Below, in pieces: positions 3,710-47,166 of a stretch of 64,000 nt of DNA. The position numbers were made by a program, and so were the translations under genes. The stretch comes from Clostridiales bacterium (GTDB lineage Bacteria; Bacillota; Clostridia; Saccharofermentanales; Saccharofermentanaceae). The stretch covers positions 1,182-65,181 of the forward strand of contig JAFWPB010000060.1 in NCBI GenBank assembly GCA_017545245.1, written 5' to 3'. Each line of letters starts with the position of its first letter. The first letter of the stretch is position 1. The notes under the pieces are model-generated. The model did not search any database. It was given only the letters and a program-made list of their open reading frames with translations, and was not told the DNA's origin.

Positions 3710-3785
3710 CGGGGTGTGGCTCAGGTGGTAGAGTGCTTGCTTCGGGAGCAAGAGGCCGCGAGTTCGAGTCTCGCCACTCCGACCA
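3710..3785 (+). tRNA. tRNA-Pro (anticodon CGG)
   Basis: Hand-folded cloverleaf. Acceptor CGGGGTG/CACTCCG, D-arm GCTC..GAGT, anticodon stem CTTGC/GCAAG with loop TTCGGGA (CGG), T-arm GCGAG-TTCGAGT-CTCGC, discriminator A, encoded CCA. Confidence 0.9.
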
Positions 3786-13400: not shown

Positions 13401-14859
13401 TATGGATGAACGTGAGGCGGCAAGAAAAGACGGCACGATGCCGAAGAGAGAAAGAAAGTCCTATACGATCAAGAGAGTTCCTTTTACCGAGGAACATAAG
13501 AAGCGTCATACGATCCTTGCTCCACAGATGGCGCCGATCGAATTTGAATTTGTTGAGGCGGTATTCCATCATCACGGATATAAGCTGAAAGTGCTGAAAG
13601 AAGCGACACAGGCAGATATTGAGTGCGGCCTGCGTTTTGTAAATAACGATGCTTGTTTCCCGACGGTTATTGTTGTCGGACAGATGGTCAATGCGATCCT
13701 TTCCGGTGAAGTGGATAGGGATAACACGACAGTACTGATTACCCAGACCGGTGGTGGCTGCCGTGCGACGAACTATGTTGCTTTCTTGCGAAAAGCACTG
13801 CGTGAGGCAGGATATGGTGATATTCCAGTTATCGCGTTGTCCGTTCAGCAGTTTGAGAAGAATCCTGGTTTCAAACCGACACTTCCGTTTATCAACAGTG
13901 CGCTTCGTGCGATCTGCTATGGTGATATGCTGCAGACTCTGCTTCTGCGTGTCCGTCCGTATGAGAAGGTGAAAGGTTCAGCCAATGCGCTCTACCAGTT
14001 CTGGAACCGTTGCGGAAAACTCTTTTTCAATCCGAAGGAGAAATTCGAAGATATCACGACGGAGTACATCATGGCAGAAGCCTGCAAGAATGCGCCTCTG
14101 ACGGATGATGAGAAGAAAGCAGTAGAAGATCTTCTGAAAGAACTGCACTGCAGTAAGGTCGGGCGTCCGTCCTCTTACAGAAAAATGATCGATGCTACGA
14201 TCGATACATTTGATAAATTCCCGATGCTGGATATCCCGAGAAAACCACGTGTCGGTCTTGTCGGAGAGATCCTGGTAAAATTCCAGCCTGACGCGAATAA
14301 CCACGCCGTGGATGTTGTCGAGCAGGAAGGCTGTGAAGCAGTTGTTCCTGGCCTTCTTGACTTCTTCCTGTACTGTGCGATGGGTCCGGTCTGGGCTGCG
14401 GAGCATCTCGGCAGAAGCAAGAAATCCGCATGGCTTTCCAACCGCGGTATTGATCTTCTCCAGTCCTATCGCCGCCATATCGTAAAGAGAATGGCGCAGA
14501 CCGGAAAATTCCAGTTGCCGGAAAGCATCCGTCATATGGCAAAGAAGGCAGAGAATGTACTTTCCTGCGGTAACGATAACGGAGAAGGATGGTTCCTGAC
14601 AGCGGAAATGATCGAGCTGATCGAGAGCGGCGTTCCGAATATCATCTGCGCCCAGCCTTTTGCATGTCTTCCAAACCATGTAACCGGTAAAGGCATGATC
14701 AAGGAACTACGTCGTCAGTATCCGCTGTCCAATATCATCCCGATCGACTATGACCCGGGTGCCAGTGAAGCGAATCAGTTGAACCGTATCAAGCTTATGG
14801 TCAGCACGGCACATTACCGTGAAGAGATGAAGCAAAAAGAACAGGAGAGCAAGAAATAA
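10462..14859 (+). CDS. BCR/HAD-family fusion protein: two BcrAD/BadFG (HgdC-like) activator ATPase modules plus DUF2229/2-hydroxyacyl-CoA-dehydratase-like domains (possible PlsAR-type enzyme)
   Basis: 1465 aa; ATG 10468 is an alternative start with better RBS spacing. [11 protein letters not shown] and [11 protein letters not shown] are ASKHA phosphate-1 motifs. Paired Cys contexts [22 protein letters not shown] and [22 protein letters not shown]. Cys-rich [11 protein letters not shown]...[12 protein letters not shown]2229-like [25 protein letters not shown] and [13 protein letters not shown]. Confidence 0.85.
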
Positions 14860-14874
14860 CGAGGAGAGTCGGAT

Positions 14875-17640: not shown

Positions 17641-17661
17641 TAGAAAAAGGAGCAGAACGAG

Positions 17662-18270
17662 ATGTTTGTTTTAGGTATAACTGGTGGTATCGGATGTGGC
17701 AAAAGCACTGTTTCGGGATATTTCCGTGATCATGGTGTGCGTGTGCTCGATGCGGATGAAATCTCCAGACAAGTCACCAATACAGGAGGCATCGCCCTTC
17801 CGGAAATCGCAGAACTCCTTGGTTCCCGTGCAATCAATTCGCAAGGCGCGCTAAACCGCAAATACGTTGCATCTCTTGTTTTTTCTGAGAAGAAGAAACT
17901 TGATAAACTTTCGGCAATTATCCATAAGTATGTACTTTCCACCATTGCGGAGGAAATCGTAAAAGAGGCGGAGAAGAAGACAAAGCTTCTGGTCCTCGAT
18001 GTACCGATCCCGGTCAAGCATGGCTTTGTGGATGTGTGCAACCAGATATGGGTCGTCAGCACAAGAGACGATATCCGTCTTGAAAGACTGGTGCTCCGCG
18101 GAATGAATAGAGAAGATGCCCAGAAACGAATGGCCATGCAGATGACACGGGAAGAATATGAAGAACTCGGTGATGTTGTTCTGGTCAACGACGGCACGAT
18201 CGAAGAACTGATTTCCCAAGTCGAAGATGCTGTAAAAAAAGAACTTAACGAAAGAGGTATCCGCATATGA
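17662..18270 (+). CDS. coaE: Dephospho-CoA kinase
   Basis: 202 aa. P-loop GITGGIGCGKST. Conserved polA-coaE adjacency. Confidence 0.9.
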   Translation: MFVLGITGGIGCGKSTVSGYFRDHGVRVLDADEISRQVTNTGGIALPEIAELLGSRAINSQGALNRKYVASLVFSEKKKLDKLSAIIHKYVLSTIAEEIVKEAEKKTKLLVLDVPIPVKHGFVDVCNQIWVVSTRDDIRLERLVLRGMNREDAQKRMAMQMTREEYEELGDVVLVNDGTIEELISQVEDAVKKELNERGIRI

Positions 18271-18557
18271 ATGCCAAAGTGATCATCTCTCTTTGTTTTC
18301 TCGTTGTTTCAGTCGTGGTGACGATCCTGTGCTTTACGGTGCTCCGTAAGAAAAACTACGGAAAATTCATCGGCGCTTCGTCTGTGACATATGCATCCGG
18401 CTGCCTTTTGGTCTTTTTACTGGCGCTTTTTAAGAAGAATGCACCGCTCGTATTTGTGATCCTTTCGGATTCCCTGATCAGCGGTGTTTATTTGTTTACG
18501 GTTATTATGTTGATCCTGGTATGTACTAAAATCGTGGAGGGCGAAAAGCCTTCCTGA
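18267..18557 (+). CDS. Small integral membrane protein (3 predicted TM helices)
   Basis: 96 aa. The ATGA start/stop overlaps coaE. Hydrophobic segments VIISLCFLVVSVVVTILCF, GCLLVFLLALF, ISGVYLFTVIMLILV. Confidence 0.5.
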   Translation: MNAKVIISLCFLVVSVVVTILCFTVLRKKNYGKFIGASSVTYASGCLLVFLLALFKKNAPLVFVILSDSLISGVYLFTVIMLILVCTKIVEGEKPS

Positions 18558-18570
18558 AAGCGAGGATGAT

Positions 18571-20472
18571 ATGGGAATGGGTGGTCCGGGCTCCATGCGG
18601 ATGGGTCCAAGAGGTTTTTTAACCGAAGAAGAGAAGAAAAACAAACCAAAGGTAGATAAGAAACTCCTTAAGCGGATCGCATCTTACATGAAGCCGTACC
18701 GCCTTCAGTTTGCACTCGTAATCCTGTCTATCCTGCTATCCGCGGTAGTCGGCCTTTTCCCTTCGATCATTACCGGAAAAATCGTGGACAAAGCGCTTCT
18801 CGGCGATGATATGGGACTTCTCATCAAACTTCTGCTCGCTGCTTTTGCCGCATTGACCGTTTCCCAGGTCATCAGTGTCATAGAAAGTTATATCAATGCC
18901 TGGATTTCCCAGCGCATCATTTTCGATATGAAGAACGAGATGTACCGCCATCTCCAGTGGATGCCGCACAGTTTCTTTACGACAGAAAAACAGGGTGACA
19001 TCATCACCCGAATGAACACAGATATATCCGGCGTCAGTTCGGTTATTTCCAATACGCTGTCCAGCTGCGTAAATAACCTGGCTACGGTAGTCACGACTCT
19101 TGTCGCACTCTTCACCATGAGTATTCCGCTTGCTTTCGTCGGTATACTGATCATTCCGTTATTGATCCTGCCTACCAGAAACGTCGGTAGAAACCGCTAT
19201 AAGCTTCTTACTAAGACCCAGGAAAAAAATGATGAACTGAATCAGGTCATTAATGAAACTCTCTCCGTATCAGGTTCGATGCTTGTAAAGCTCTTTACGA
19301 GAGAGCAGAAAGAATACGAGAATTTCGTGGAGGTCAATGAACAGGTCACGAAGCTGTCTTTGAAAGAGCAACGGAGTGGTAAATGGTTCCGTGTCATGAT
19401 GGGCATGTTTACCCAGGTCGGCCCGCTCCTGATCTACTTTGCGGGCGGTATCTGCATCATCAAAAAAGTCGACACGACGCTTACCGTCGGTGTGGTCACT
19501 GCCACAGTAGCACTTATCAACCGTCTCTATCGTCCTGTCGAGTCACTCATGAATCTTGGCGTCGACTTTACGCGTTCACTTGCTCTGTTTACCCGTATTT
19601 TCGATTATTTCGACCGCGAGAATCCTCTGGTATCTCCTGAAAACGGGGAGAAGCCGGATGTGAAAAACAAGGACATCGTCTTTGATCACGTGAAGTTTTC
19701 CTATACTCCGGAAAAAGAACTGCTCCAGGACGTGACGTTTACCGTTCCGGGTGGAAAGATGTACGCTATTGTCGGTCCTTCCGGTTCAGGAAAATCCACC
19801 GTCGTGAACTTTATTCCGCGTCTTTACGATGTGCTTGAAGGAAGCGTCTCGATTGCCGGTGTAGATGTAAGGAAGATCGATCTTACCTATCTACGTCAAC
19901 AGATTGGTGTCGTGACACAGGATACCTATCTTTTCAATGGAACGATCAAGGAAAACCTTCTCTATGCAAAAGAAGATGCAACAGATGAAGAAATTGAGAA
20001 AGCCTGTAAGATTGCAAGTATCCATGACTTTATCAGCAAGCAGCCTGATGGATATGAAACGATGGTCGGTAACCGTGGTTTGAAGCTTTCCGGAGGAGAA
20101 AAGCAGCGCCTCAGTATCGCCAGAGTCATATTAAAAGATCCGAAGATCCTGATCCTTGATGAGGCGACAAGTGCACTTGATTCCATTTCCGAGAATGCCA
20201 TTTCGGAAGCGCTGGAGGTCCTGATGCAGGATCGTACGTCGATCGTTATTGCGCACAGACTGTCGACCATCATGAAGGCAGAGAAGATCGTCGTCATCGC
20301 TGACGGACATGTGGCCGAACTTGGAACACATCAGGAGCTGCTGGAGAAAAACGGCATATATCGGGATCTCTATGAGACTCAGTTCCGACAGGTTCTTGAT
20401 ATGCAGGAAGCAATCAAACCGGAAAATCCGGAGTGGGAAGAGAAGAATATGATTCAAAATGATGTATACTAA
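18571..20472 (+). CDS. ABC transporter, fused permease/ATP-binding half-transporter (MsbA/exporter type)
   Basis: 633 aa. Six-helix TMD, then Walker A GPSGSGKST, signature LSGGEKQR, Walker B ILILDEATSALD. Gly/Pro/Met-rich N-terminal extension. Confidence 0.9.
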   Translation: MGMGGPGSMRMGPRGFLTEEEKKNKPKVDKKLLKRIASYMKPYRLQFALVILSILLSAVVGLFPSIITGKIVDKALLGDDMGLLIKLLLAAFAALTVSQVISVIESYINAWISQRIIFDMKNEMYRHLQWMPHSFFTTEKQGDIITRMNTDISGVSSVISNTLSSCVNNLATVVTTLVALFTMSIPLAFVGILIIPLLILPTRNVGRNRYKLLTKTQEKNDELNQVINETLSVSGSMLVKLFTREQKEYENFVEVNEQVTKLSLKEQRSGKWFRVMMGMFTQVGPLLIYFAGGICIIKKVDTTLTVGVVTATVALINRLYRPVESLMNLGVDFTRSLALFTRIFDYFDRENPLVSPENGEKPDVKNKDIVFDHVKFSYTPEKELLQDVTFTVPGGKMYAIVGPSGSGKSTVVNFIPRLYDVLEGSVSIAGVDVRKIDLTYLRQQIGVVTQDTYLFNGTIKENLLYAKEDATDEEIEKACKIASIHDFISKQPDGYETMVGNRGLKLSGGEKQRLSIARVILKDPKILILDEATSALDSISENAISEALEVLMQDRTSIVIAHRLSTIMKAEKIVVIADGHVAELGTHQELLEKNGIYRDLYETQFRQVLDMQEAIKPENPEWEEKNMIQNDVY

Positions 20473-27185: not shown

Positions 27186-28517
27186 ATGAACGAACCGGTA
27201 GTGACGATCATCGGCGCAGGACTGGCCGGCTCTGAAGCGGCATGGCAGGTGGCGCGTCATGGGGTGAAGGTACGTCTTTATGAGATGAAGCCTGTCCGAA
27301 AGAGTCCTGCACACCACACGGAGCAGTTCGCTGAGCTGGTTTGCAGTAATTCACTTCGTTCCAACCAATTAGAAAATGGTGTTGGTCTTCTGAAAGAAGA
27401 ACTTCGTATATTAGGCTCCTTGATCATGGAATCGGCTGATAAGGCGCAGGTTCCTGCGGGCGGAGCTTTGGCTGTTGACCGTGAAGAGTTCTCCGGTTAC
27501 ATCACCGAGAAGATAAAAGAACATCCGCTTATTGAAGTTGTATACGATGAAATCAAAAAGATTCCGGATGATGGTATTGTTATTGTTGCAACTGGTCCAC
27601 TCACGGATGGTGATCTTTACGATGATATTATGACCAAGATTGGTCAGAAGGATATGCACTTCTTTGATGCTGCCGCTCCGATCGTGATGGAATCAAGTAT
27701 CGACCGCTCGATTTGTTTTGCCATGTCGCGATATGGTAAAGGCGGAGATGACTATTTAAACTGCCCGATGAACGAAGAAGAGTATCGTCGTTTCTATGAA
27801 GCTTTGGTTTCTGCAGAACTTGCTGATGTCAAAGGCTTTGATAAAGAAACTGTTTTTGAAGGCTGTATGCCAATCGAGACGATGGCCAAGCGCGGCTACG
27901 ATACTATGCGTTTCGGACCTTTGAAACCTGTAGGACTCATTGACCCAAGAACAGGGAAGGAGCCATATGCCTGCGTACAACTGCGTCAGGATGATAGAAT
28001 GGCTTCTATCTACAACATTGTCGGCTTTCAGACCAGACTCAAATTCCCGGAGCAAAAGCGTGTTTTCAGCATGATCCCGGGACTTGAAAATGCTGAGTTT
28101 ACGCGGATGGGAGTCATGCACAGGAATACATATATTGAATCTCCCAAACTTCTGGATGCTTCTTATCGGCTTCGTGAAGATCCGAGAGTGTTCTTCGCAG
28201 GGCAGATCACAGGCGTAGAAGGATATATCGAGTCAACTGCATCCGGCTACCTTGCCGGTTATTATGCTGCATCGCAGGTCAGAGAGGATATGGATCCGGT
28301 TTCTTTTAGCGCTGAAACCATGATCGGAGCAATGGCTGCTTATATTTCTGATCCGAATGTCAAACACTTTGTTCCGATGAATGCAAACTTCGGACTGGTG
28401 GCTCCTTTGGGTTACAAAGTGAAAGGAAAGAAAAAAGAAAAGAATCTTGCCTATGCAGAGCGTGCGATTGCTGAAGTGTGCAAGAATAAAGAAACGATGG
28501 AGAATTTTTGGAAATGA
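27186..28517 (+). CDS. trmFO: Methylenetetrahydrofolate--tRNA-(uracil54-C5)-methyltransferase TrmFO
   Basis: 443 aa. FAD motif IIGAGLAGSEAAWQ, ELVCSNSLRS, FAGQITGVEGYIESTASG. Classic dprA-topA-trmFO order. Confidence 0.95.
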   Translation: MNEPVVTIIGAGLAGSEAAWQVARHGVKVRLYEMKPVRKSPAHHTEQFAELVCSNSLRSNQLENGVGLLKEELRILGSLIMESADKAQVPAGGALAVDREEFSGYITEKIKEHPLIEVVYDEIKKIPDDGIVIVATGPLTDGDLYDDIMTKIGQKDMHFFDAAAPIVMESSIDRSICFAMSRYGKGGDDYLNCPMNEEEYRRFYEALVSAELADVKGFDKETVFEGCMPIETMAKRGYDTMRFGPLKPVGLIDPRTGKEPYACVQLRQDDRMASIYNIVGFQTRLKFPEQKRVFSMIPGLENAEFTRMGVMHRNTYIESPKLLDASYRLREDPRVFFAGQITGVEGYIESTASGYLAGYYAASQVREDMDPVSFSAETMIGAMAAYISDPNVKHFVPMNANFGLVAPLGYKVKGKKKEKNLAYAERAIAEVCKNKETMENFWK

Positions 28518-29383
28518 AGTTAGGTAGAATACAATTTGAAGACGGGATCAAGCCAGCTGTCAGTGGCGGATTCTGGAGAACTTTCGGTCGTAACTGGAGT
28601 AGATTGATATCCTGTAATGCACTCTTCTTGATTTGTAATATTATCTCCATGTTTATTGCGTTTTTCATGGTGCTGACGATGTTTCCGTTCCTGTTCAAGA
28701 TATTCCTTTTTGAGAATTTTAAGGATTTTCTTGTTTCTAACGGTATGTTTACGCTCGAAGAGGCTACCGATGAGGCCGTTAACAGCATTTATTATCTGGT
28801 CAGCCTGATCTGTGAGATGTCACTTGTCGGTTTTCTTCTGATCATAAATGGTCCGATCCAATGTGGAATCTGTTATTACATGAGAAACATGATAACCGGA
28901 GATGCGTCTTTCAAGGCTGATTTCAAGAAAGGCGTGAAAGAAAACTGGAAGAAGGGACTTGGCGCCAGCATCATTTCGCTTCTTGTGACAGTTATACTGA
29001 TCTTTAATATCGGATATTACAAGAACGTCAGTTCCGGAACGGTCACGCTGTTCGTGCAGGGTTTCTTTATCTGGTGCCTTGTTTTCTGGTCTTGTCTGCA
29101 ATTATATGTCTATCCGCTGATTGCATGTACCAAGCTTTCTTTGAAAGATGTATACCGTAATGCAGCGCTTTTCTTCTTGAAGAAGTTCTTCTCGACACTG
29201 GGTATTTTCCTGATCCAGATGGTTCTCTTTTTCGGTCTGCCATTTGTCCTGATCTTCTTAGTGAGTCAGGTCGGATATGCCATCGCCATGCTGTTTTATA
29301 TCCTTTTTTCGTTTGGTTTTGTTATTTTCCTGGGAACCTATCAGTCCTGGAAACTCATTCAGAAATACGTCAAAGAACAATAA
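28508..29383 (+). CDS. YesL/DUF624-like polytopic membrane protein
   Basis: 291 aa. GGFWRTFGRNWSRLISCNALFLICNI followed by ~6 hydrophobic helices. Overlaps trmFO by 10 nt. Confidence 0.5.
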   Translation: MEMKLGRIQFEDGIKPAVSGGFWRTFGRNWSRLISCNALFLICNIISMFIAFFMVLTMFPFLFKIFLFENFKDFLVSNGMFTLEEATDEAVNSIYYLVSLICEMSLVGFLLIINGPIQCGICYYMRNMITGDASFKADFKKGVKENWKKGLGASIISLLVTVILIFNIGYYKNVSSGTVTLFVQGFFIWCLVFWSCLQLYVYPLIACTKLSLKDVYRNAALFFLKKFFSTLGIFLIQMVLFFGLPFVLIFLVSQVGYAIAMLFYILFSFGFVIFLGTYQSWKLIQKYVKEQ

Positions 29384-29525
29384 GCAGCATTCCCGAAGAC
29401 CGACGGAAACGGCCGTTTTTGCTTGAGCGGCTTCAACAATAGAACTTTCAGAAATCAAGTGATATGTACTTTTTCAGGCTTTTGGGCTAAAATGAAATAT
29501 AATCTTTTTTGTGAGGAACATGCTT

Positions 29526-31004
29526 ATGATACAGTGTGAAAGAGGTCATTTCTTTGATGAGAACCGTTATGCTGGTTGCCCATACTGCAATCAGATCGCC
29601 AGTCAACAAAGGAGTGTTATACCTCCTATTGCTCCAGCTATGGAGATTCCGAAACCATCTTGTGGAAAGACTGTTGCTATTGAGGGAATGGATACTGCTC
29701 CACAGATCAGCAAGACTGTCGCAATCGATGGATTCGAGGATAATTATCCTCATGTAAATAAGACTGTATCGATCACGGAACAGCTTTCGCCTTCCGGTCT
29801 TCCCGAATTTGCTCCGGCTGCTGCTGTTGCACCAATAGCTGCAAGTGCACCTGCTGCACAACCTGCACCGGCCGCTCCGACTGCGGTGGAAGTTCCTGCC
29901 GCTCCAGCAGTACAGGCCGCTCCAGTTGAAACAGCAGTTTCCAGCCCAGCTCCTTTTGCGGCCGCACCTGCTCCGCAAGAAACAGCGGATGCTTCTGCTG
30001 CACAAGTTAACAATGCTCCGGATCTTTCCTCTGATCCTGAGTCGTTCATGCGTCCTTATCAGGTAACCGGATTGGGTGTGAAAGAAAACCCGACACCGAT
30101 TCCTGTAAATGAACCAGTCTACGATCGTCCTTATGCCGTTTCGGGGCTGGGAGTAAAAGAGAATCCGACACCAACACCTTCTGATGTGGGTGCAACTTTC
30201 CCTGTAGAGCAACAAGGTGCAGCACCGATGGCTGCTGAGGCAGCGGCATTTGCATCTTTTGGTTTCCCGGGTGGACCTGTTCCGGGTATGATGCCTGGTA
30301 TGGTTCCGGGCATGCCACCGGCTCCGGCATCACCGTTTGCTTCTCCGGCACCTGCAGCACCTGAGGTTCAGGCTGAGCCTGCTGTTGCCGAAACGCCTGT
30401 GGCTCCGGTTGAAGCCGAAACACCGGTTGAACCTGCTGTACCTGAGGTTCCTGCTGAACCTGCAGTATTCGAGGCACCGGTTGAAACACCAGTAACCGAG
30501 AAACCTGTTGAACCTGCTGCTGTTGAAACACCAGTTCAACCTGAAGTGGCTGAAACACCAGCTGAATCGGTAGTTTCCGAAGTTCCTGTGGTTCCGGTAG
30601 TTCCTCAAGCTCCGGCTGATCCTCATGCGACTGTAGCAATGACAGAATCCGATATGGATTATCTGCCGAGGCTGCACGCAAGAGCTTTTTTCGTATGTAT
30701 AGATGGTCCTATGACAGGTGCAAGCTTTGTATTCCAGGAGAATAAGGCGATCATCGGCCGTCAGAAGAATTATGAGATTTCGCTTTTCAGAGATCCGTCT
30801 GTATCGCGTAACCCGCATGCGATTATCCGTTATGCCAAAGAAACACTGACTTATACTGTTGCTCCAGGCGATGCGGAGAAGAAAGTATCTGTAAATGGCG
30901 AGTTTATTTCCCAGGAGCAGACTCTGAAACTTTACGATATCGTGGGTATCGGTCAGACAAGACTTCTGTTCATTCCAGTCTGCAGTGAGAAGTTTGCATG
31001 GTAA
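29526..31004 (+). CDS. Zinc-ribbon / long Pro-Ala-rich disordered linker / C-terminal FHA domain protein
   Basis: GAGGAA RBS favours ATG 29526 (MIQCERGHFFDENRYAGCPYCN). Low-complexity PA/ETPV region at ~29800-30620. FHA motifs IIGRQ, SVSRNPHAII, VSVNGEFI, IGQTRLLF. Confidence 0.85.
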   Translation: MIQCERGHFFDENRYAGCPYCNQIASQQRSVIPPIAPAMEIPKPSCGKTVAIEGMDTAPQISKTVAIDGFEDNYPHVNKTVSITEQLSPSGLPEFAPAAAVAPIAASAPAAQPAPAAPTAVEVPAAPAVQAAPVETAVSSPAPFAAAPAPQETADASAAQVNNAPDLSSDPESFMRPYQVTGLGVKENPTPIPVNEPVYDRPYAVSGLGVKENPTPTPSDVGATFPVEQQGAAPMAAEAAAFASFGFPGGPVPGMMPGMVPGMPPAPASPFASPAPAAPEVQAEPAVAETPVAPVEAETPVEPAVPEVPAEPAVFEAPVETPVTEKPVEPAAVETPVQPEVAETPAESVVSEVPVVPVVPQAPADPHATVAMTESDMDYLPRLHARAFFVCIDGPMTGASFVFQENKAIIGRQKNYEISLFRDPSVSRNPHAIIRYAKETLTYTVAPGDAEKKVSVNGEFISQEQTLKLYDIVGIGQTRLLFIPVCSEKFAW

Positions 31005-31948
31005 TGGAAACAGTTCTTGCATCTTTAAATATGGAGAAAGCGAAGGATTTTCTTCATCATTGGGGGATTTTGTGTGCTCTTGTCCTAGTGCTGGTTATCG
31101 CCGTGATCCTGGTTATTCTGGTTTTGAAACGGAAAAAGGGAAAGGTGGTTGTGCCGAGCATGGCTGATCATTCCACAGGCACAAAGATGAGCAATGGCCT
31201 GTTTGAGATTGAAATCGGCAATTGTCAGGGAATTGGAGAAAGAGAAGAACAGCAGGATGCTTTTGGATTCTCGCCCAATAACAAGTGGAAAGATAAAGGT
31301 TTTCTAGCCGTTCTTTGCGATGGTATGGGTGGTCTGGATTCCGGTGCGGTGATTTCCAATAAGCTGGTAGCGGACGTGATCAAAGAGTTTCCGTATTCTT
31401 TTGATGCGCTCAAAGAAGGCTGGATCATCGATTCTCTTTCTGCGGAGATCTATTCCCAGTATAGTGGTCGTGGCGGTACAACGCTGATCATCACATATTT
31501 GAAAGACGATAAGCTTTGGTTTGCTTCAGTCGGAGACAGTGATCTGCTTCTTTACCGAGGCGGTCGTATCTATGCGATGAATCAAAGACAGGAATATGGA
31601 AATCACCTTCTTATGAAGGTGGTGGACGATGCTCTTGCGATGGAGCAGATCGAAGGAAATCCTGATGCGCCGGCTTTGACGGAGTTTATGGGTGCACAGC
31701 ATGCTGATCCTGACTATTCGATCACGCCGTGGCAGGTAATGGATGGAGATACATATCTTCTTTGTTCTGATGGTATTTCAGATACTCTGTCTTTCGATGA
31801 GATCCGTGAGGCGATGTCCCACTCGCCGGCAGAATGCGCGGAAATTCTTGAAAAGAGTATAATGGAGAAAAATAAGAGATATCAAGATAACTATACTGCA
31901 ATCATTTTTTCAATCAAAAGGGTGGAGGTTTCAAATGAAGTGGGTTAG
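30998..31948 (+). CDS. PP2C-family Ser/Thr phosphatase with N-terminal TM anchor
   Basis: 316 aa. TM ILCALVLVLVIAVILVILVL followed by KRKKGK. PP2C motifs EEQQDAF, VLCDGMGG, SVGDSDLLLY, LLCSDGISD, QDNYTAI. Start overlaps the upstream stop. Confidence 0.85.
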   Translation: MVMETVLASLNMEKAKDFLHHWGILCALVLVLVIAVILVILVLKRKKGKVVVPSMADHSTGTKMSNGLFEIEIGNCQGIGEREEQQDAFGFSPNNKWKDKGFLAVLCDGMGGLDSGAVISNKLVADVIKEFPYSFDALKEGWIIDSLSAEIYSQYSGRGGTTLIITYLKDDKLWFASVGDSDLLLYRGGRIYAMNQRQEYGNHLLMKVVDDALAMEQIEGNPDAPALTEFMGAQHADPDYSITPWQVMDGDTYLLCSDGISDTLSFDEIREAMSHSPAECAEILEKSIMEKNKRYQDNYTAIIFSIKRVEVSNEVG

Positions 31949-33269
31949 AAGAATTATCATGATACTGTTGGCGTTGGGCATCGCTGGTTGTGGTTTTTTG
32001 TCCTATTTGTCCTATGACAAGTGGAAAGAAGCAGATAAGGAAGTGACACGCCTTTCCTTGCTCAAAGATACACAGGGTGTAAGCATTTCAACTTCTGAAA
32101 ACCAGGAGTCGGTCGTATTTGTCATGTGTATCCGAGAATCAGATATGGCCGGCGGATACGGCTCCGGATATGTGGTTGGTGAACCCGGAGATAAGGCTGA
32201 GTACATCGTAACGAATGGTCATGTTGTTTCTTATCTTGAAAAGGATGATTCATTCGAAGTTCGTGTATATTTCGGAAAGAACGATTACAAGCCTGCAGAA
32301 GTTATTTTCTATCAGTATGATAAGAAACTGGATATGGCGATCCTCAAGCTTTCCAAGCCTACTTCTGATCGTACGCCTGTAGTGATCCGTGACTCTGATG
32401 AAGTTAATGCTGGTGATAAGTGTGTTGCCATCGGTTATCCGGATAAGGCCAATGACCTTGATACGAATTTTGCTGCGGATATTGCCAGCCAGACAGTTAC
32501 AGCCGGTGTTATCGGTAAAGTAAATGTTTCTCCTGCAGGTAAGTCCTACAAGTCATTCCAGATTGATGCGTTTATCACTCATGGTAACTCGGGCGGACCG
32601 CTTTTCGATGAGAATGGTTTCTTGATCGGTATGAACACGGAGGGCCGTGAAGACTCTGAAAACGTTAACTTCTCCATTTCAAGTAACGAGATCACAAAGA
32701 TTCTTGATAAAGAAGATATCGATTACACAACTAGTGATGATTACATTAAGAGTGAATCTGCTGACTCAAAAAAATCCGGTAAAAAGAAGTCCGAATTGTC
32801 CAAGAAGGAAGAGGAAGCGAATACAGAGAAAATCAAGTGCTTTGCCTTTGCGGGCGGTGCCGCTCTTTGTGCCGTTATTCTTCTTATTCTGGCGATCGTA
32901 GGAAATAAGAAAGTCGTCATGGTTGGCGAACAGGATGATGGAAAGAAGTCGATCCTTTACTGTACAAAAGGTCTTTATGCCGGACAAAGATTTGAGATTA
33001 CCGGTCATACGATGACTTTCGGACGCGACAAGAATACCTGCACGTTCGTTTTCCCGGAGAATACCCCGGGTATCAGTTCCAACCATTGCTCTGTATATTT
33101 CGATGCAAGAACCAAGAATTTTGTTCTTACAGATAATGGATCAACTTACGGTACTTATCTTGCTGACGGAAGAAAACTGACGAAGGGCGTTCCGGAGCAG
33201 ATCGCTCCCGGCTCTACGTTTGCCCTGGCCGATAAGGCGAACGAATTCCGTATAGAAAGAGAAGAATAA
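31935..33269 (+). CDS. Trypsin-like (S1) serine protease ectodomain - TM helix - cytoplasmic FHA domain fusion protein
   Basis: 444 aa. GGTGGAGG RBS. N-terminal LALGIAGC lipobox/anchor. Catalytic contexts TNGHVV, LDMAILKL, THGNSGGPLF. KKSGKKKSELSKKEEE linker. TM FAFAGGAALCAVILLILAIVG. FHA motifs TFGRD, ISSNHCSVYF, DNGSTYGTYL. Confidence 0.85.
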   Translation: MKWVRRIIMILLALGIAGCGFLSYLSYDKWKEADKEVTRLSLLKDTQGVSISTSENQESVVFVMCIRESDMAGGYGSGYVVGEPGDKAEYIVTNGHVVSYLEKDDSFEVRVYFGKNDYKPAEVIFYQYDKKLDMAILKLSKPTSDRTPVVIRDSDEVNAGDKCVAIGYPDKANDLDTNFAADIASQTVTAGVIGKVNVSPAGKSYKSFQIDAFITHGNSGGPLFDENGFLIGMNTEGREDSENVNFSISSNEITKILDKEDIDYTTSDDYIKSESADSKKSGKKKSELSKKEEEANTEKIKCFAFAGGAALCAVILLILAIVGNKKVVMVGEQDDGKKSILYCTKGLYAGQRFEITGHTMTFGRDKNTCTFVFPENTPGISSNHCSVYFDARTKNFVLTDNGSTYGTYLADGRKLTKGVPEQIAPGSTFALADKANEFRIEREE

Positions 33270-33271
33270 TC

Positions 33272-33979
33272 ATGGATTTTTATTCGTACACAAACAAGTG
33301 CGGGCATGAGCCGAATTGCGACTACCATCAGTTTATTGAGCACAATGATCAGATCCTGATGGTTGTTTGCGATGGCTTGAATGGTCTGCCTTCCGGTGAT
33401 GAAGCGTCGAAGATCATTGGGGATCTTGCGATCGCGGCGTTGATCGAAGGGGAGACTCCGGCGCAGGCTTGTATTACGGCGAATAAGAAGTTCCGTGAAA
33501 TGCAGTTTGACCAGGTAGCATTGCGTCGTGCCGGAGCCACGATCTGCGTGGTACGGATAAAAGATGGAATCTGCTCCTGGGCGAATGTTGGTGATTCACA
33601 TATTTATCATTTCTCCGAAGGGAAACTGGCACATCATTCTCATGACGATACGATGGCATACCAGATGTTTGAACGTGGGGAATGTGATTATGAAGCGATC
33701 CGTGAGATCGAAAACCGGACAGGTATGAATATCTGCGTGGGGCAGAAGGATGAAATCGTGCCGCATGTGGAGGAGTTTTCATTTAACGATCAGGATGGAA
33801 TACTTGTTTGTACAGACGGTTTTTGGGAGAATGTGTACGAAACCGAGATGATGATCGACATGATCAAATCAGTTAATGCAAAAGACTGGGCACGCAAAAT
33901 GCTTTTGCGTGCTTCGCAGCGTGGCCGGCTCAAAGGCGACAATATGACGCTGATCACTTATAAGAGAATGGCGGGTTGA
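33272..33979 (+). CDS. Soluble PP2C-like phosphatase (divergent motifs)
   Basis: 235 aa. MVVCDGLNG, ANVGDSHIYH, LVCTDGFWE, KGDNMTLI correspond to PP2C metal-binding motifs. No TM segment. Confidence 0.7.
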   Translation: MDFYSYTNKCGHEPNCDYHQFIEHNDQILMVVCDGLNGLPSGDEASKIIGDLAIAALIEGETPAQACITANKKFREMQFDQVALRRAGATICVVRIKDGICSWANVGDSHIYHFSEGKLAHHSHDDTMAYQMFERGECDYEAIREIENRTGMNICVGQKDEIVPHVEEFSFNDQDGILVCTDGFWENVYETEMMIDMIKSVNAKDWARKMLLRASQRGRLKGDNMTLITYKRMAG

Positions 33980-33983
33980 CAGA

Positions 33984-36446
33984 ATGGATACGAAGAATCT
34001 GTGCTTTGGATGTTTTAATGCTCATAACGGACAAGGACCATGTCCACGTTGTGGATTCGATCTTGCAACGGTGAAGCATCCTTTCGTTGCTCTCCCGATC
34101 GGAACGATTCTGAATGGACGGTATCTGACCGGCCGTGTACTAGGTGTGGGCGGCTTTGGTGTGACCTACCTTGCTTTCGATATGACGCTGGAAATCTGTG
34201 TGGCGATCAAGGAGTTCCTGCCATCAGGTATAGCGCTTCGTGATTCTGACAGATATACGATGACAGTCAGTTCTCCGGATGAACAGCCGAAGTTTGATTC
34301 CGGTGCGTCCAGATTCCTTGAAGAAGCAAGACTTCTTGCCAAGCTCCGTGATGTTCCGAATATCGTAACCGTGCAGGATTATTTCCGTGAAAATAATACC
34401 GCTTACTTTGTCATGGAGTATATTGAAGGCGTCGATCTGATGAAATATACGCAGATGCGCGGTGGTAAGCTTTCCTATGAAGAGACACTGCAGCTTACGC
34501 TTCCAATCATCGATTCTCTTGCACATGTTCATGCGCACAATCTTTTGCATCGTGATATCAGTCCTGACAATATTGTTGTGATGAAGAACGGTTCAACACG
34601 ACTTCTGGACTTTGGCGCGGCAAGACTGGCAATCGATACAGAGAAGAGCAAATCGATCATTCTCAAGCATGGATTTGCTCCGGAAGAACAATATAGAAAA
34701 CATGGTAATCAGGGCCCTTGGTCAGATGAGTATGCCCTTGCAGCGACGATGTATCTGGTCATGACAGGTGTTATGCCGCCGGATGCCATCGAACGTGTCC
34801 ATACGGATACGCTTGTTTCCCCGCTTCAGCTTGGTGTGCAGATTCCACAGCATGCGAACGATGCTTTGATGAAAGCACTTGCCGTCAATGCTTCCGAAAG
34901 ATTCCCGGACATGAGTTCTTTTTCCGAAGCATTAACAGGAAGAAAAGCAGTTGCTCCGATTACGTATTCTGCTGTAACTGACGTAATGAGCGGAACGCCA
35001 AGTACGGAACTGCCTAATGCCGGTTCGGTCATGGAAGGCAATATGGTTGAGGGCAAGACAGTTGCTATGGTAGAAGAAGTACCAGCTGTTTCCGCTCAGG
35101 GCGTTCCGGGACAACAGGCACCGCAGCAGGTTCCTGCGCAAGTCCAGCAAGGTATGCCGCAGGCACAGGCTCAGGCCCAGGCACAGGCGGGGCAGAAGGT
35201 AATCTCGCCATCGATCCTGAATCCTGCCCAGGCACAGGCTCTTCAGACAGAAAGACAGACGGTTCAGCCTCCGAAGGTGAAGAAGAGTATTTGGAAGCGT
35301 CCTGTCACGTATATCGTTGCTGCATTGATTGCTTTGGTCGGTGCAGGTGTGCCGACAGGTATTTTCCTGTATCAGAACGGATACCTGGGCGGAGAGACGG
35401 AAGAAACGACAAAGAGACCGAGAAGGACCACGACTACGGAGGCAACAACGGAGACAACGACCGAGCCGACTGAATATGCGGATCCCTCGATTTTTGAAGA
35501 GGGAGACTGGCGGGATTATACGGACCAGACGCGTATGTTCATGATTTCGGCGCCGAAAAACTATAACTTTGAGAGCGATGAGGGCCTCTATATTCTGAAG
35601 CGTGACGATGGCAAGTGTGTTGTATATACTGATTTCCTAACGCATTACGGCTACGACAGGATTTCTTCTTTGAGCGATTTTGTTGCATTAAGCAGAACGT
35701 TTGTTGAACAGTATGTAGACAACGAATTTGATTTGAAGGATTTTTCGTTGAAATCTACTGATTATGGGTTCATCCATCTCTCTAATGATTGTTATAGCGT
35801 GATGGTTGATGCCAATGCTGTCTTAAATGGAGAAAAGGTCGACGTTACGTTCATGGCGACGGAATCCAAAGAAAAAGAAGGTGTCTTCCTGAATTGTGCT
35901 GTCATGCCGCTGGACGATAAAGGCATGTATTCCAGTGATGACTGGGATGAATTACAGCAGATTCTCGGAAGCTTTGCAGAAGACACGACAAAAAAGAGTT
36001 CATATGAATTGTATGAATCTGATCTGACCCCGTCTTTCGAATTCTTGTATAAAAAGGATGACGTGGCTTCGATCCAGCAGGGAACAGTGGCAAATTCACT
36101 GACTTGTACGGATATTGCGATTTCTGAATCGAATCCGGAGAAGAATCTGATCCGTATAGTGAATCTCGGAAAGCAGAGTTCCATCACATCGGCATGTAAA
36201 ACAATGGAGCAGGCGATCGGCTTCTCCGTTGGCGGATATACGGCAGTCACCCCGATCGTGCGTACAGATCTGGATATCCGTGTCCGGAATTACACGGTCC
36301 AGAAAGATGGTGAGGATCTGAACTGTACGGCATGTGCCATGAAGTTAGGCGGACAGTACTATGGTGTGATAGCGGTCTGTGATGATGATTCGCTTGAAAA
36401 AGTTACACTGGCCTATACGTTAGCCGTGATGTCGCTTTCCAACTGA
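33984..36446 (+). CDS. Hanks-type Ser/Thr protein kinase with N-terminal zinc ribbon, single TM and ~350-aa non-PASTA ectodomain
   Basis: 820 aa. CFGCFNAHNGQGPCPRCGF. GVGGFGVTY G-loop, VAIKEF, HRDISPDNIVV, DFGAAR, GFAPEEQY. Gln/Ala-rich linker. TM VTYIVAALIALVGAGVPTGIFLY. Thr-rich stalk, then an unassigned ectodomain. Confidence 0.9.
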   Translation: MDTKNLCFGCFNAHNGQGPCPRCGFDLATVKHPFVALPIGTILNGRYLTGRVLGVGGFGVTYLAFDMTLEICVAIKEFLPSGIALRDSDRYTMTVSSPDEQPKFDSGASRFLEEARLLAKLRDVPNIVTVQDYFRENNTAYFVMEYIEGVDLMKYTQMRGGKLSYEETLQLTLPIIDSLAHVHAHNLLHRDISPDNIVVMKNGSTRLLDFGAARLAIDTEKSKSIILKHGFAPEEQYRKHGNQGPWSDEYALAATMYLVMTGVMPPDAIERVHTDTLVSPLQLGVQIPQHANDALMKALAVNASERFPDMSSFSEALTGRKAVAPITYSAVTDVMSGTPSTELPNAGSVMEGNMVEGKTVAMVEEVPAVSAQGVPGQQAPQQVPAQVQQGMPQAQAQAQAQAGQKVISPSILNPAQAQALQTERQTVQPPKVKKSIWKRPVTYIVAALIALVGAGVPTGIFLYQNGYLGGETEETTKRPRRTTTTEATTETTTEPTEYADPSIFEEGDWRDYTDQTRMFMISAPKNYNFESDEGLYILKRDDGKCVVYTDFLTHYGYDRISSLSDFVALSRTFVEQYVDNEFDLKDFSLKSTDYGFIHLSNDCYSVMVDANAVLNGEKVDVTFMATESKEKEGVFLNCAVMPLDDKGMYSSDDWDELQQILGSFAEDTTKKSSYELYESDLTPSFEFLYKKDDVASIQQGTVANSLTCTDIAISESNPEKNLIRIVNLGKQSSITSACKTMEQAIGFSVGGYTAVTPIVRTDLDIRVRNYTVQKDGEDLNCTACAMKLGGQYYGVIAVCDDDSLEKVTLAYTLAVMSLSN

Positions 36447-38635
<2,189 letters not shown>

Positions 38636-44447: not shown

Positions 44448-44800
44448 CTGAGCTGGACCAGATGATCGCGGGCACGAGTGCCGAAAGGCCGTGCATGAGG
44501 AAAGTCCGGGCTCCGTAGGACAAGGGTGCCGGGCAGTTCCCGGTGAAGGCAACTTTAAGGAAAGTGCAACAGAAAAGAAAACCGCCGTGTTTTTCGGAAC
44601 ATGGCAAGGATGAAAAGGCGAGGTAAGAGCTCACCAGCGGTATGGTAACATATCGGCTTTGTAAACCCCACCTGGAGCAACGCCGTGGGAGATGTTAACT
44701 GTGGTCCGCAGGTCTCAAGGAGGCGGCTTGAGCCGGAACGAGATTTCCGGTCTAGATAGATGATCATCATAGACAGAACCCGGCTTACGGTCCAACTCAG
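44448..44800 (+). ncRNA. rnpB: RNase P RNA (bacterial, class A-like)
   Basis: P4 strands GAGGAAAGTCCGGGCTC (44497-44513) and ACAGAACCCGGCTTA (44773-44787). GGAAAGTGCAACAGAAA element. P1 pairing CTGAGCTGGACC (44448-44459) with GGTCCAACTCAG (44789-44800). TATAAT at 44431-44436 upstream. Confidence 0.9.
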
Positions 44801-44868
44801 AAAATGTTATTGTGTAAGATCCGTCGGGAAACCGGCGAAAGATGAAATAAAGAAAGAAGGATAATGAC

Positions 44869-47090: not shown

Positions 47091-47166
47091 GTACCTTTAG
47101 CTCAGTTGGTAGAGCAACTGACTCTTAATCAGTGGGCCCAGGGTTCGAGTCCCTGAAGGTGCACCA
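47091..47166 (+). tRNA. tRNA-Lys (anticodon CUU)
   Basis: Hand-folded. Acceptor GTACCTT/AAGGTGC, D-arm GCTC..GAGC, anticodon stem ACTGA/TCAGT with loop CTCTTAA (CTT), T-arm CAGGG-TTCGAGT-CCCTG, encoded CCA. Confidence 0.9.

Follow-up and report, generated by a model that had tools for sequence, protein, structure and literature searches.

A stretch of 64,000 nucleotides (nt) from a Clostridiales bacterium (GCA_017545245.1, contig JAFWPB010000060.1, positions 1,182 to 65,181, forward strand), called here the window, contains a compact cassette of five genes. Their products combine a Hanks-type Ser/Thr kinase, two PP2C phosphatases and two FHA-domain proteins, one of which also carries a trypsin-like protease. 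In an earlier note on this DNA, five + strand open reading frames (ORFs) at 29526-36446 had been described as a tightly packed, operon-like unit devoid of rodA and pbpA. The ORFs are present at these coordinates. The packing and the lack of the two genes are borne out in the window and in 16 related loci from different genera of Clostridia and from Cohnella (Paenibacillaceae), collected with the third gene as bait. In window coordinates, the genes, named g1 to g5, are the following.

29526..31004, + strand: g1 (ORF also open from 29511), 492 amino acids (aa), putative scaffold protein with a zinc ribbon, a disordered multi-motif linker and, at its C-terminus, an FHA domain

30998..31948, + strand: g2, 316 aa (314 aa if started at the ATG in 31004), PP2C phosphatase anchored in the membrane by its N-terminus

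31935..33269, + strand: g3, 444 aa, signal-anchor, extracytoplasmic HtrA-like S1 protease, transmembrane (TM) segment and cytoplasmic FHA domain, as predicted

33272..33979, + strand: g4, 235 aa, soluble PP2C phosphatase

33984..36446, + strand: g5, 820 aa, zinc ribbon, PpkA-type Hanks kinase, juxtamembrane linker, TM segment and tandem PsbP-like ectodomain, as predicted

The four successive junctions, from g1/g2 to g4/g5, measure -7, -14, +2 and +4 nt. The 7-nt overlap between g1 and g2 reads ATGGTAA; if g2 started at 31004, the overlap would be TAATG. The best start of g1 is the ATG in 29526, with a GAGGA sequence 9 nt upstream. Gene calls on a 98%-identical contig, L087 (related loci are designated by L numbers), likewise give a g1 of 492 aa. 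Translational coupling and a single transcript for the five genes may thus be envisaged from this packing. A scan for sigma-70 promoters upstream of g1 gave no convincing candidate, and the counts of promoters and terminators were not above those in shuffled sequences. The 5′ side of g1 shows no more than a weak hairpin at 29402-29417 and a TATAAT at 29498-29503, which stands alone. The internal terminator-like matches in the cassette fall within TM-coding segments. Because no convincing promoter is found and all genes are co-directional from about 22.2 kb onward, the transcription unit could begin further upstream of g1. On the other side lies tgt, a convergent gene, whose stop (36447-36449, read as TCA on the + strand) directly abuts the TGA stop of g5 (36444-36446). 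The two stops form a TGATCA palindrome with no intergenic base, and there is therefore no space for a terminator between them. The same stop-to-stop arrangement occurs in L087, and a 6-nt gap is seen in L083.

The most unusual component of the cassette is the g3 protein, in which two domains could be located.

32112..32714, + strand: g3 protease domain (residues ~60-260), without PDZ (Pfam, AlphaFold2 (AF2) model, Foldseek)

32946..33263, + strand: g3 FHA domain, predicted to be cytoplasmic (residues 338-443), joined to the second TM segment (TM2) by a low-confidence linker (Pfam, AF2)

Pfam identifies Trypsin_2 (E 3e-24) and FHA (E 3e-11) in this protein, and hydrophobic segments are found at residues 7-25 and 304-322. 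In the AF2 model (pLDDT 87), an N-terminal helix (2-43) is followed by the protease (60-260), a stalk and TM2 (267-323), the low-confidence linker (325-332) and the FHA domain (338-443). The protease is matched in Foldseek by HtrA, DegP, DegS, Deg1 and HTRA1, with an E value of 1e-14 and a TMt of up to 0.76 (DegS-deltaPDZ), a resemblance also seen in sequence comparisons. No PDZ domain is recognised in g3 by Pfam, the C-terminal part being made of the TM segment and the FHA domain. The scores of g3 with the NCBIfam models for HtrA, DegS and MarP are all far below their cut-offs (98 bits versus 416 for TIGR02037). Among 21 g3 homologues, down to 24% identity, His96, Asp133 and Ser219 of the protease and Gly363, Arg364 and His384 of the FHA domain are invariant, and Ser381 of the FHA domain is kept in at least 90%. 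The topology with two membrane segments, an N-terminal export signal or anchor and a second TM, is conserved in all 21 of them, which supports a protease located outside and an FHA domain located inside. A lipobox had been proposed at the N-terminus of g3. This assignment was rejected, as Cys19 is not conserved, being absent from the homologues P0003 and P0005; a conserved signal or anchor describes the segment better. In structure database comparisons, neither the FHA domain of g3 nor that of g1 has a close solved relative.

The g1 protein has no hydrophobic segment. Its features are distributed as follows.

29535..29588, + strand: CHCC zinc-ribbon-like motif (C4, H8, C18, C21), kept in 18/18 g1 homologues

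29667..29774, + strand: three [GSN]K-T-V-[AS]-I motifs (T49, T64, T80), candidate phospho-acceptor and FHA-docking sites; 3 observed versus 0.04 expected in composition shuffles

30421..30561, + strand: 27-nt (9-aa) imperfect tandem repeats in the Pro/Ala/Glu/Val-rich linker (Tandem Repeats Finder)

30627..30641, + strand: A-T-V-A-M motif (T369), located some 25 residues N-terminal to the FHA domain, kept in L001 and L083

30699..30974, + strand: FHA domain, divergent, of SRxxH type (Pfam FHA and Yop-YscD_cpl matches)

The N-terminal C-x3-H...CPxC arrangement noticed earlier is thus real and, in the 18 homologues, takes the form C-x2-GH-[FY]-[YF]-D-x6-8-CP-x-C. Beyond this Cys/His motif, the homologues share a linker of highly variable length, from about 40 to about 340 residues, and a divergent FHA domain with F-[IV]-P-x-C-x3-F-x-W at its end. 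In g1 itself, the C-terminal FHA domain (23.9 bits versus a cut-off of 20.7) is the sole domain found by Pfam, and the N-domain of FhaA was not detected. The 27-nt repeats encode the (E/A)-T-P-V-x-P-rich part of the linker. Another part of the linker (residues ~186-230, ~30080-30215) contains two copies of the peptide RPY[QA]V[TS]GLGVKENPTP, which is kept in L001 and L083 and absent from distant homologues; it may be a further docking or phosphorylation site.

The disordered linkers of g1 and g5 share a short recurrent motif, [KR]-T-V-[AGS]-[IVM], found around T49, T64, T80 and T369 of g1 and around T359 in the juxtamembrane linker of g5. At the T369 position, just before the FHA domain, distant g1 homologues have GKTVAVF or GKTVG[IVM]. 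In 13/18 g1 homologues, the slightly broader pattern [KR]TV[AGSP]x is more frequent than in composition shuffles (shuffle P < 0.015), with up to 6 copies in distant ones (DIGKTVAV in L002 and L081). The motif often stands directly upstream of an FHA domain, as DTGKTVAVF in L008 and L017 and, in L002, upstream of an FHA domain of the g3 type. In g5, the K-T-V-A-M sequence is retained although the surrounding juxtamembrane linker is 49-59% identical. Many FHA domains prefer a hydrophobic residue at the third position after the phosphothreonine (pThr, pT-x-x-hydrophobic). The T-x-x-[I/V/M] pattern fits this pT+3 preference, and we propose that the threonines of the K-T-V-A-x motifs are candidate phospho-acceptor and FHA-docking sites. 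The juxtaposition of a phospho-motif and an FHA domain also resembles the self-binding switch of GarA and OdhI.

In the g5 protein, three features are of particular interest.

34545-34568, + strand: HRDISPDN (residues 188-195), catalytic loop in which the Lys of HRDxKxxN is replaced

35055..35069, + strand: K-T-V-A-M motif (T359) in the juxtamembrane region, kept in L001, L083 and L086

35469..36443, + strand: ectodomain, modelled as two tandem alpha/beta sandwich (PsbP/Mog1/DcrB/DUF1795-like) domains (AF2 model)

The kinase domain is readily recognised (Pfam Pkinase, E 5e-30), with its GVGGFG, VAIK, HRDISPDN, DFG and APE motifs, and the single hydrophobic segment of the receptor is found at residues 444-462. 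Its closest solved relative is PpkA (PDB 5hnv; E 1.1e-40). StkP comes next (1.4e-23), and the PknA and PknB structures give E values of ~1e-16 to 1e-19. g5 and PpkA have in common the atypical catalytic loop HRDIS(P/L)DN and the activation segment ILKxGFAPxEQY. Judged from its sequence, the g5 kinase is of the PpkA type. The loop was compared among the kinases of L001-L017, L076, L081-L086 and the window: 29/30 Bacillota cassette kinases have HRD[IV][STAC]P[DE]N, with Ser, Thr, Ala or Cys in place of the Lys, and the sequence in solved PpkA is HRDISLDN. It may be imagined that the conserved Lys of the activation segment (ILKxGFAPE) compensates for the lost Lys of HRDxK. A zinc ribbon of the CxxC...CPRC kind had been described at the N-terminus of g5; a CxxC...CxxC ribbon is indeed present in 20/29 cassette kinases.

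The ectodomain of g5 was expected not to be of the PASTA type, and no PASTA match is obtained with Pfam, nor any other Pfam match. The kinase reaches 140 bits with the PknB_PASTA model NF033483, versus a cut-off of 450. The AF2 model of the ectodomain (pLDDT 77, pTM 0.68) is matched in Foldseek by PsbP, CyanoP, DcrB, Mog1, EagT6 and LpqN (E ~1e-4, TMt 0.5-0.65 per single domain). With moderate confidence, the sensor would thus adopt a tandem PsbP-like fold. An exhaustive HMMER scan of 1.84e9 representative proteins returned 6 relatives at E < 1e-3, and a word-indexed search with the ectodomain alone or with a 4-sequence profile returned one truncated, near-identical protein. In the other cassettes, the kinase ectodomains are unrelated: PASTA and FG-GAP in Cohnella, DUF5050 in L004 and unassigned in most.

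Both phosphatases belong to PP2C_2 in Pfam (E 2e-07 for g2 and 4e-12 for g4). Their matches with Stp1-like phosphatases (E 7e-24 and 4e-31, respectively) are below the cut-off. The DG(M/L)xG, GDS, DG and DN motifs can be read in both sequences (DGMGG in g2), the metal-binding motifs are intact, and g4 can be aligned to solved PP2C structures. In g2, a TM segment (24-42) precedes KRKKGK, and this puts the catalytic domain on the cytoplasmic side; g4 has no hydrophobic segment. The two proteins represent distinct orthologous groups lying side by side, the g4 group being found in 13/16 loci. In three cassettes, the position of g4 is occupied by a family of 108-136 aa without Pfam match (L002 9468-9872, L081 11514-11924 and L085 11315-11641). 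The idea that the cassette is not the prpC-prkC pair holds, the PP2Cs (84.6 and 108.4 bits versus a cut-off of 230 for NF033484, Stp1/IreP) and the kinase being far below the corresponding NCBIfam cut-offs. Canonically, prpC-prkC is surrounded by rsmB, rlmN and rsgA. None of these genes is adjacent to the present cassette. Overall, profile searches recovered all the domains and the predicted topology anticipated by the earlier note, with intact catalytic and pThr-binding residues.

The conservation of the cassette was then considered. Among the 120 best protein clusters to g3, most carry both Pfam domains and most come from metagenome-assembled genomes (MAGs) of Clostridiales. In a scan with one genome per species, full-length relatives were found in Clostridiales and Clostridia bacteria, unclassified Bacillota, Ruminococcaceae, Ruminococcus, Lachnospiraceae, Acetatifactor, Lawsonibacter and Cohnella yongneupensis. 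Examination of the neighbourhoods shows that the gene order recurs in Clostridia and in other Firmicutes. At each of the 16 related loci, the same strand encodes, side by side, a zinc-ribbon FHA protein of the g1 type, a PP2C of the g2 type, the protease-FHA protein and between one and four kinases, with intergenic distances mostly below 30 nt. All-against-all clustering of every ORF in the 16 loci, combined with Pfam-annotated neighbourhoods, gave as recurring families the g1 family (16/16), PP2C (16/16, two copies in 13) and kinase/FHA (16/16), and otherwise only antisense shadow ORFs. In this clustering, no RodA, FtsW, penicillin-binding protein (PBP), transcription factor or secretion gene recurs across the loci. 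Toxin, nuclease, MoxR, secretion-system or other effector genes were found in none of them. The flanking genes differ between lineages. In the lineage of the window, the order comM-dprA-topA-trmFO-membrane protein-cassette-tgt-queA-dapA-dapB-yajC-dnaG is retained at 59% g3 identity, and no mobility gene is found around the cassette.

Sister cassettes provide variations on the same theme. The g3-type FHA domain is fused to kinases in L004 and L045. It is also fused to other membrane proteins, namely the PrsW intramembrane protease (L004, L045), a VWA protein (L045), a DUF805 protein (L005) and a degenerate trypsin. The FHA-fusion and kinase-FHA genes lie at the following positions.

L004: 9204-10499 and 10506-12422

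L045: 6951-8285, 8297-9721, 12015-13310 and 14005-15864

L005: 4637-5359

Because of its fusions to PrsW, VWA and DUF805, the g3-type FHA domain could be regarded as a portable adaptor linking membrane effectors to the kinase. The kinase-FHA fusions suggest that FHA domains of this class work directly with a kinase. It had been suggested that FHA domains couple the state of the kinase to the protease, and this view gains support from the fusions in L004 and L045 and from the conserved candidate docking motif.

Purifying selection acts on all parts of the cassette where the synonymous divergence (dS) can be measured. The kinase domain is 91-95% identical among relatives whose TrmFO proteins are 86% identical. 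The outward parts evolve faster, with 47-62% identity for the ectodomain of g5 and 59-72% for the protease of g3. Positive selection on the ectodomain of g5 was considered and is not supported, the ratio of nonsynonymous to synonymous divergence (dN/dS) being 0.13 at the one measurable distance and dS being saturated beyond.

Since the g5 kinase is assigned to the PpkA type, the closest known system is the threonine-phosphorylation pathway (TPP) of type VI secretion systems (T6SS), made of PpkA, PppA and Fha and found in Pseudomonas, Serratia and Agrobacterium. The kinase of this pathway is the closest solved relative of g5 and has the same HRDIS(P/L)DN loop. Both kinases are single-pass receptors with an outer domain that varies between species, and both are accompanied by a PP2C antagonist and by an FHA protein, a putative scaffold in the case of g1, having a disordered, Pro/Ala-rich region. 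In Serratia, PpkA-dependent phosphorylation causes Fha to multimerise, PppA reverses this effect, and PpkA varies between species in its periplasmic domains (PMC6082577). However, several differences are apparent. The host here is Gram-positive and has two PP2Cs instead of one. The zinc ribbon of g1 is N-terminal and its FHA domain C-terminal, the reverse of the Fha/TagH type with its N-terminal FHA domain and C-terminal disorder. g5 has an N-terminal zinc ribbon and a PsbP-like outer domain, as opposed to one of vWA type. Finally, the client would be an FHA-fused extracytoplasmic protease and not a secretion machine. No T6SS core gene (tss, hcp, vgrG) is linked to the cassette in the flanks of the window, and no further family recurs in the 16 loci.

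The earlier note had taken the actinobacterial fhaA-fhaB-pstP-rodA-pbpA-pknA-pknB cluster as the nearest parallel. In both systems, an operon indeed encodes FHA proteins together with a membrane PP2C and one or several receptor Hanks kinases; one of the FHA proteins has a long disordered linker and another is tethered to the membrane. However, this parallel does not stand as the nearest one. The kinase is far nearer to PpkA (E 1e-40) than to PknA or PknB and has no PASTA domain, and rodA and pbpA are missing. A zinc ribbon replaces the N-domain of FhaA in g1, the TM-FHA protein g3 carries a protease, and g2 is anchored N-terminally, unlike PstP. With the FhaB/FipA model NF049868, g1 and g3 score 15.6 and 28.9 bits, respectively, versus a cut-off of 125.

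On the protease side, g3 resembles DegS and the HtrA family (MEROPS S1C). It has an N-terminal membrane anchor, then an extracytoplasmic chymotrypsin-fold protease with a His-Asp-Ser triad, and a peptide-binding regulatory domain C-terminal to the protease. In contrast with these proteins, it has no PDZ domain, and its regulatory FHA domain would be cytoplasmic, behind a second TM segment. With the FHA domain in the cytoplasm, regulation would come from inside, via phosphothreonine, and not from unfolded proteins outside.

Two other phospho-signalling systems deserve comparison. The Esr pathway of Actinomycetes also has a kinase/phosphatase pair, a threonine in the disordered region of an output protein ending in an FHA domain, and variable added domains including zinc fingers. 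In this pathway, the switch is a phosphorylated threonine of EsrG, an FHA output protein, and lies in its disordered region (Wang et al., 2026, preprint, PMC13622651). The pathway is reported to be confined to Actinomycetes and is linked to Esx secretion (PMC13622651). However, the cassette has none of the further components that Esr requires, namely the EsrA beta-propeller filament, MoxR, vWA and a transglutaminase. The DRA0331-0334 operon of Deinococcus radiodurans (vWA / STPK / FHA / FHA-PP2C) likewise groups a Ser/Thr kinase, FHA domains and a PP2C, and has been described as a push-pull phospho-docking module (bioRxiv 10.64898/2026.01.23.701218). It differs by its vWA partner and its FHA-PP2C fusion, by its cytoplasmic location and its role in DNA-damage signalling, and by the lack of a protease or of a membrane-spanning FHA client.

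That no system of this composition had been characterised agrees with our survey of the full-text literature, in which no description of a trypsin-FHA or PrsW-FHA cassette, nor of HRDISPDN kinases, was found. The searched passages of the bacterial Ser/Thr kinase atlas do not mention a zinc-ribbon/FHA/trypsin context or an HRDISPDN loop. The Aravind 2020 paper on vWA/MoxR conflict systems and the lipocone paper were considered as prior descriptions, and neither describes the cassette.

Considering these properties, we propose that the cassette is a self-contained, TPP-like phospho-switch, in which a PpkA-type receptor kinase would control a surface protease through pThr-dependent FHA assembly. 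We give this reading a probability of about 0.5. The switch would be a Gram-positive counterpart, conserved in Bacillota, of the PpkA/PppA/Fha pathway by which type VI secretion is gated, with the multivalent scaffold g1 and the protease g3 as dedicated clients. The lineage-specific, tandem PsbP-like ectodomain of g5 would bind an extracytoplasmic cue. The kinase would then autophosphorylate and would phosphorylate the threonines of the K-T-V-A-[I/V/M] motifs, of which g1 has four and the juxtamembrane linker of g5 itself has one. Docking of the g1 and g3 FHA domains on these pT-x-x-[I/V/M] sites would lead to a multivalent assembly at the membrane. Such an assembly could recruit or cluster g3 and thereby control the activity or the location of the outward-facing protease. 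In this respect, it should be reminded that proteases of the HtrA family are active as trimers. As modelled, TM2 and the FHA domain are joined by a flexible linker, which would favour recruitment or clustering over rigid transmembrane allostery. The FHA domain of g3 would stand in for the missing regulatory PDZ domain, on the opposite side of the membrane. Finally, the membrane-anchored g2 and the soluble g4 would erase the phospho-marks. In this scheme, we infer the phosphorylated residues, the binding partners, the direction of signalling, the substrate of the protease and the nature of the cue.

Several observations weigh against this proposal. A K-rich segment just outside TM2 of g3 conflicts with the positive-inside rule. 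The FHA domain of g3 has a Tyr in place of the usual Asn of S-T-N-G, and that of g1 is divergent and barely above the Pfam cut-off. The domain order of g1 is opposite to that of T6SS Fha proteins, and 5 of the 18 g1 homologues lack the [KR]TV motif as defined. Three loci have no g4. As the catalytic-loop Lys is gone, activity of g5 cannot be presumed. Moreover, the association of g3 with the core genes was ascertained by construction, because the loci were collected with g3 as bait.

The missing Lys raises the question of whether the kinase would be a pseudokinase serving as a scaffold, or whether the five genes are merely adjacent. The replacement of this residue in 29/30 Bacillota cassette kinases and the lack of a clear promoter or terminator bounding the unit could be understood in this way. 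However, the VAIK Lys, the HRD Asp, the DFG Asp, the Gly-loop and APE are all retained, and two intact PP2Cs would be pointless without phosphorylation. In addition, PpkA has the same loop substitution and is nevertheless the kinase required for Fha phosphorylation in vivo (PMC6082577). As for chance adjacency, the same gene families with short junctions are found in the 16 loci, which span different families and orders and differ in their flanks. Both versions of this explanation are considered very improbable. A housekeeping function, in place of a dedicated switch for the protease, is a more serious contender. The cassette would then be a module for envelope growth or quality control, of the PknB/PrkC kind, with the kinase as monitor of the wall or the membrane, the FHA proteins as organisers of envelope enzymes, and the protease as a participant in envelope protein quality control or in the processing of wall hydrolases, as in the MarP-RipA case. 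Such a role is partly compatible with the mechanism proposed above. It would account for the housekeeping synteny kept at 59% protein identity in the lineage of the window and for a kinase domain more conserved than TrmFO. The PASTA domain of the Cohnella cassette kinase, the resemblance of g3 to HtrA and MarP, the membrane PP2C and the FhaA-like layout (long disordered linker and C-terminal FHA domain) point in the same direction, as does the PcsB-like NlpC/P60 hydrolase gene that adjoins the cassette in L084. However, the kinase is PpkA-type and far from the PknB_PASTA cut-off (140 bits versus 450), no RodA, FtsW, PBP or other wall gene recurs in the 16 loci, g1 and g3 miss the FhaB/FipA model (16 and 29 bits versus 125), and no N-domain of FhaA is detected. 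One to four kinases per cassette, with unrelated ectodomains, would also be unusual for a single housekeeping sensor. On balance, we find this explanation rather doubtful.

One may also envisage a module of threat sensing or conflict, comparable to the T6SS TPP and to Esr, in which fast-evolving ectodomains detect competitors, phages or host factors and phosphorylated FHA outputs trigger the surface protease. The nearest solved relative of the kinase is PpkA, whose activation in P. aeruginosa responds to an incoming T6SS attack (PMC6082577). The logic of Esr is alike, with its kinase/phosphatase pair, its pThr in a disordered region and its diversified FHA outputs. The near-orphan ectodomain of g5 is the fastest-evolving globular part of the cassette (47-62% identity versus 91-95% for the kinase), the kinases and the FHA-fused outputs are modular and variable between cassettes, and the flanking genes differ between lineages. 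However, none of the loci contains toxin, nuclease, MoxR, secretion-system or other effector genes. The ectodomain is under purifying and not positive selection where this is measurable (dN/dS 0.13), and in the lineage of the window the cassette is chromosomal, syntenic, located among housekeeping genes and free of mobility genes. The matches obtained with PADLOC, which has no curated cut-offs, are generic and at the domain level (PD-T4-6 and mad6 for the kinase, RT-Protease and LmuA for the protease, none for g1 and g2). A role in conflict appears unlikely.

Returning to the TPP-like phospho-switch, its parts and its phospho-FHA logic are familiar. The new elements would be a so far undescribed client, the membrane-spanning, FHA-tethered, HtrA-like protease, an unexpected evolutionary link with a T6SS kinase and a candidate motif for docking, now defined. 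What is understood of Hanks-kinase signalling in Firmicutes comes almost wholly from PASTA kinases such as PrkC, StkP and IreK, and the PpkA lineage is otherwise known from the control of type VI secretion. The cassette would represent a second conserved, self-contained Ser/Thr system in gut Clostridia and in some Bacilli. If the proposal is true, it would provide a clear instance, among bacteria, of proteolysis outside the cell under the control of cytoplasmic phosphorylation. The T6SS phospho-switch would then be one branch of a broader family of modules plugging membrane effectors into a kinase, and the short K-T-V-A-[IVM] motif, together with defined FHA domains, could be used for testing FHA specificity. 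With its five genes, its clear point mutants (kinase Lys or Asp, FHA Arg364, protease Ser219, Thr to Ala in the motif) and an enzymatic output that can be measured, the system is experimentally tractable. A bolder extension, put forward here tentatively, is that FHA-fused membrane proteases, namely the HtrA-like g3 and PrsW-FHA, form an undescribed class of inside-out, phosphothreonine-gated proteases. A K-T-V-A-x "pThr code", written by the PpkA-type kinase on the multivalent zinc-ribbon scaffold, would be read by cytoplasmic FHA domains, and proteolysis on the outer face of the Gram-positive membrane would thereby be assembled and switched on. This would be equivalent to a DegS-like regulated proteolysis whose sensor domain has been transferred to the cytoplasm, within a signalling system widespread in gut Clostridia and evolutionarily tied to the T6SS switch.

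Synonymous divergence is unevenly distributed along the cassette. Compared with L087 (window 31004-33979), dS is about 0.02 in g2 and in the protease of g3 and 0.3-0.5 in the stalk and FHA domain of g3 and in g4. Compared with L086 (window 32055-32744), dS is 0.39 in the protease of g3 and above 1.2 in its neighbours. This mosaic suggests recombination breakpoints within the cassette.

L085 has, directly downstream of the cassette (14641-20214), three large double-zinc-ribbon proteins (DZR / Zn_Ribbon_1), one of them with a TM7S3/TM198-like membrane domain; they may be related to the zinc ribbons of g1 and of the kinases. In a Burkholderiales MAG (L021, 7311-10397), a protein of 577 aa combines trypsin-like and FHA domains and adjoins a kinase with a canonical HRDIKPSN loop. 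This is possibly an independent invention of the protease-FHA combination.

In the window, the cassette is flanked by topA, trmFO, a gene for a membrane protein, tgt, queA and dapAB. The gene immediately upstream (28508-29383) encodes a multi-pass membrane protein with a weak match to the MusI family (35 bits versus a cut-off of 160). The overlap with the end of trmFO is 10 nt, and the gene also adjoins the cassette in L001, L083, L086 and L087, where the whole region is syntenic. No paralogue of any cassette domain was found elsewhere in the window. Rfam matches at gathering level occur at 975-1204, 3710-3782, 44449-44803 and 47091-47163, and comprise a T-box leader, two tRNAs and a class A bacterial RNase P RNA, which is consistent with an ordinary chromosomal region.

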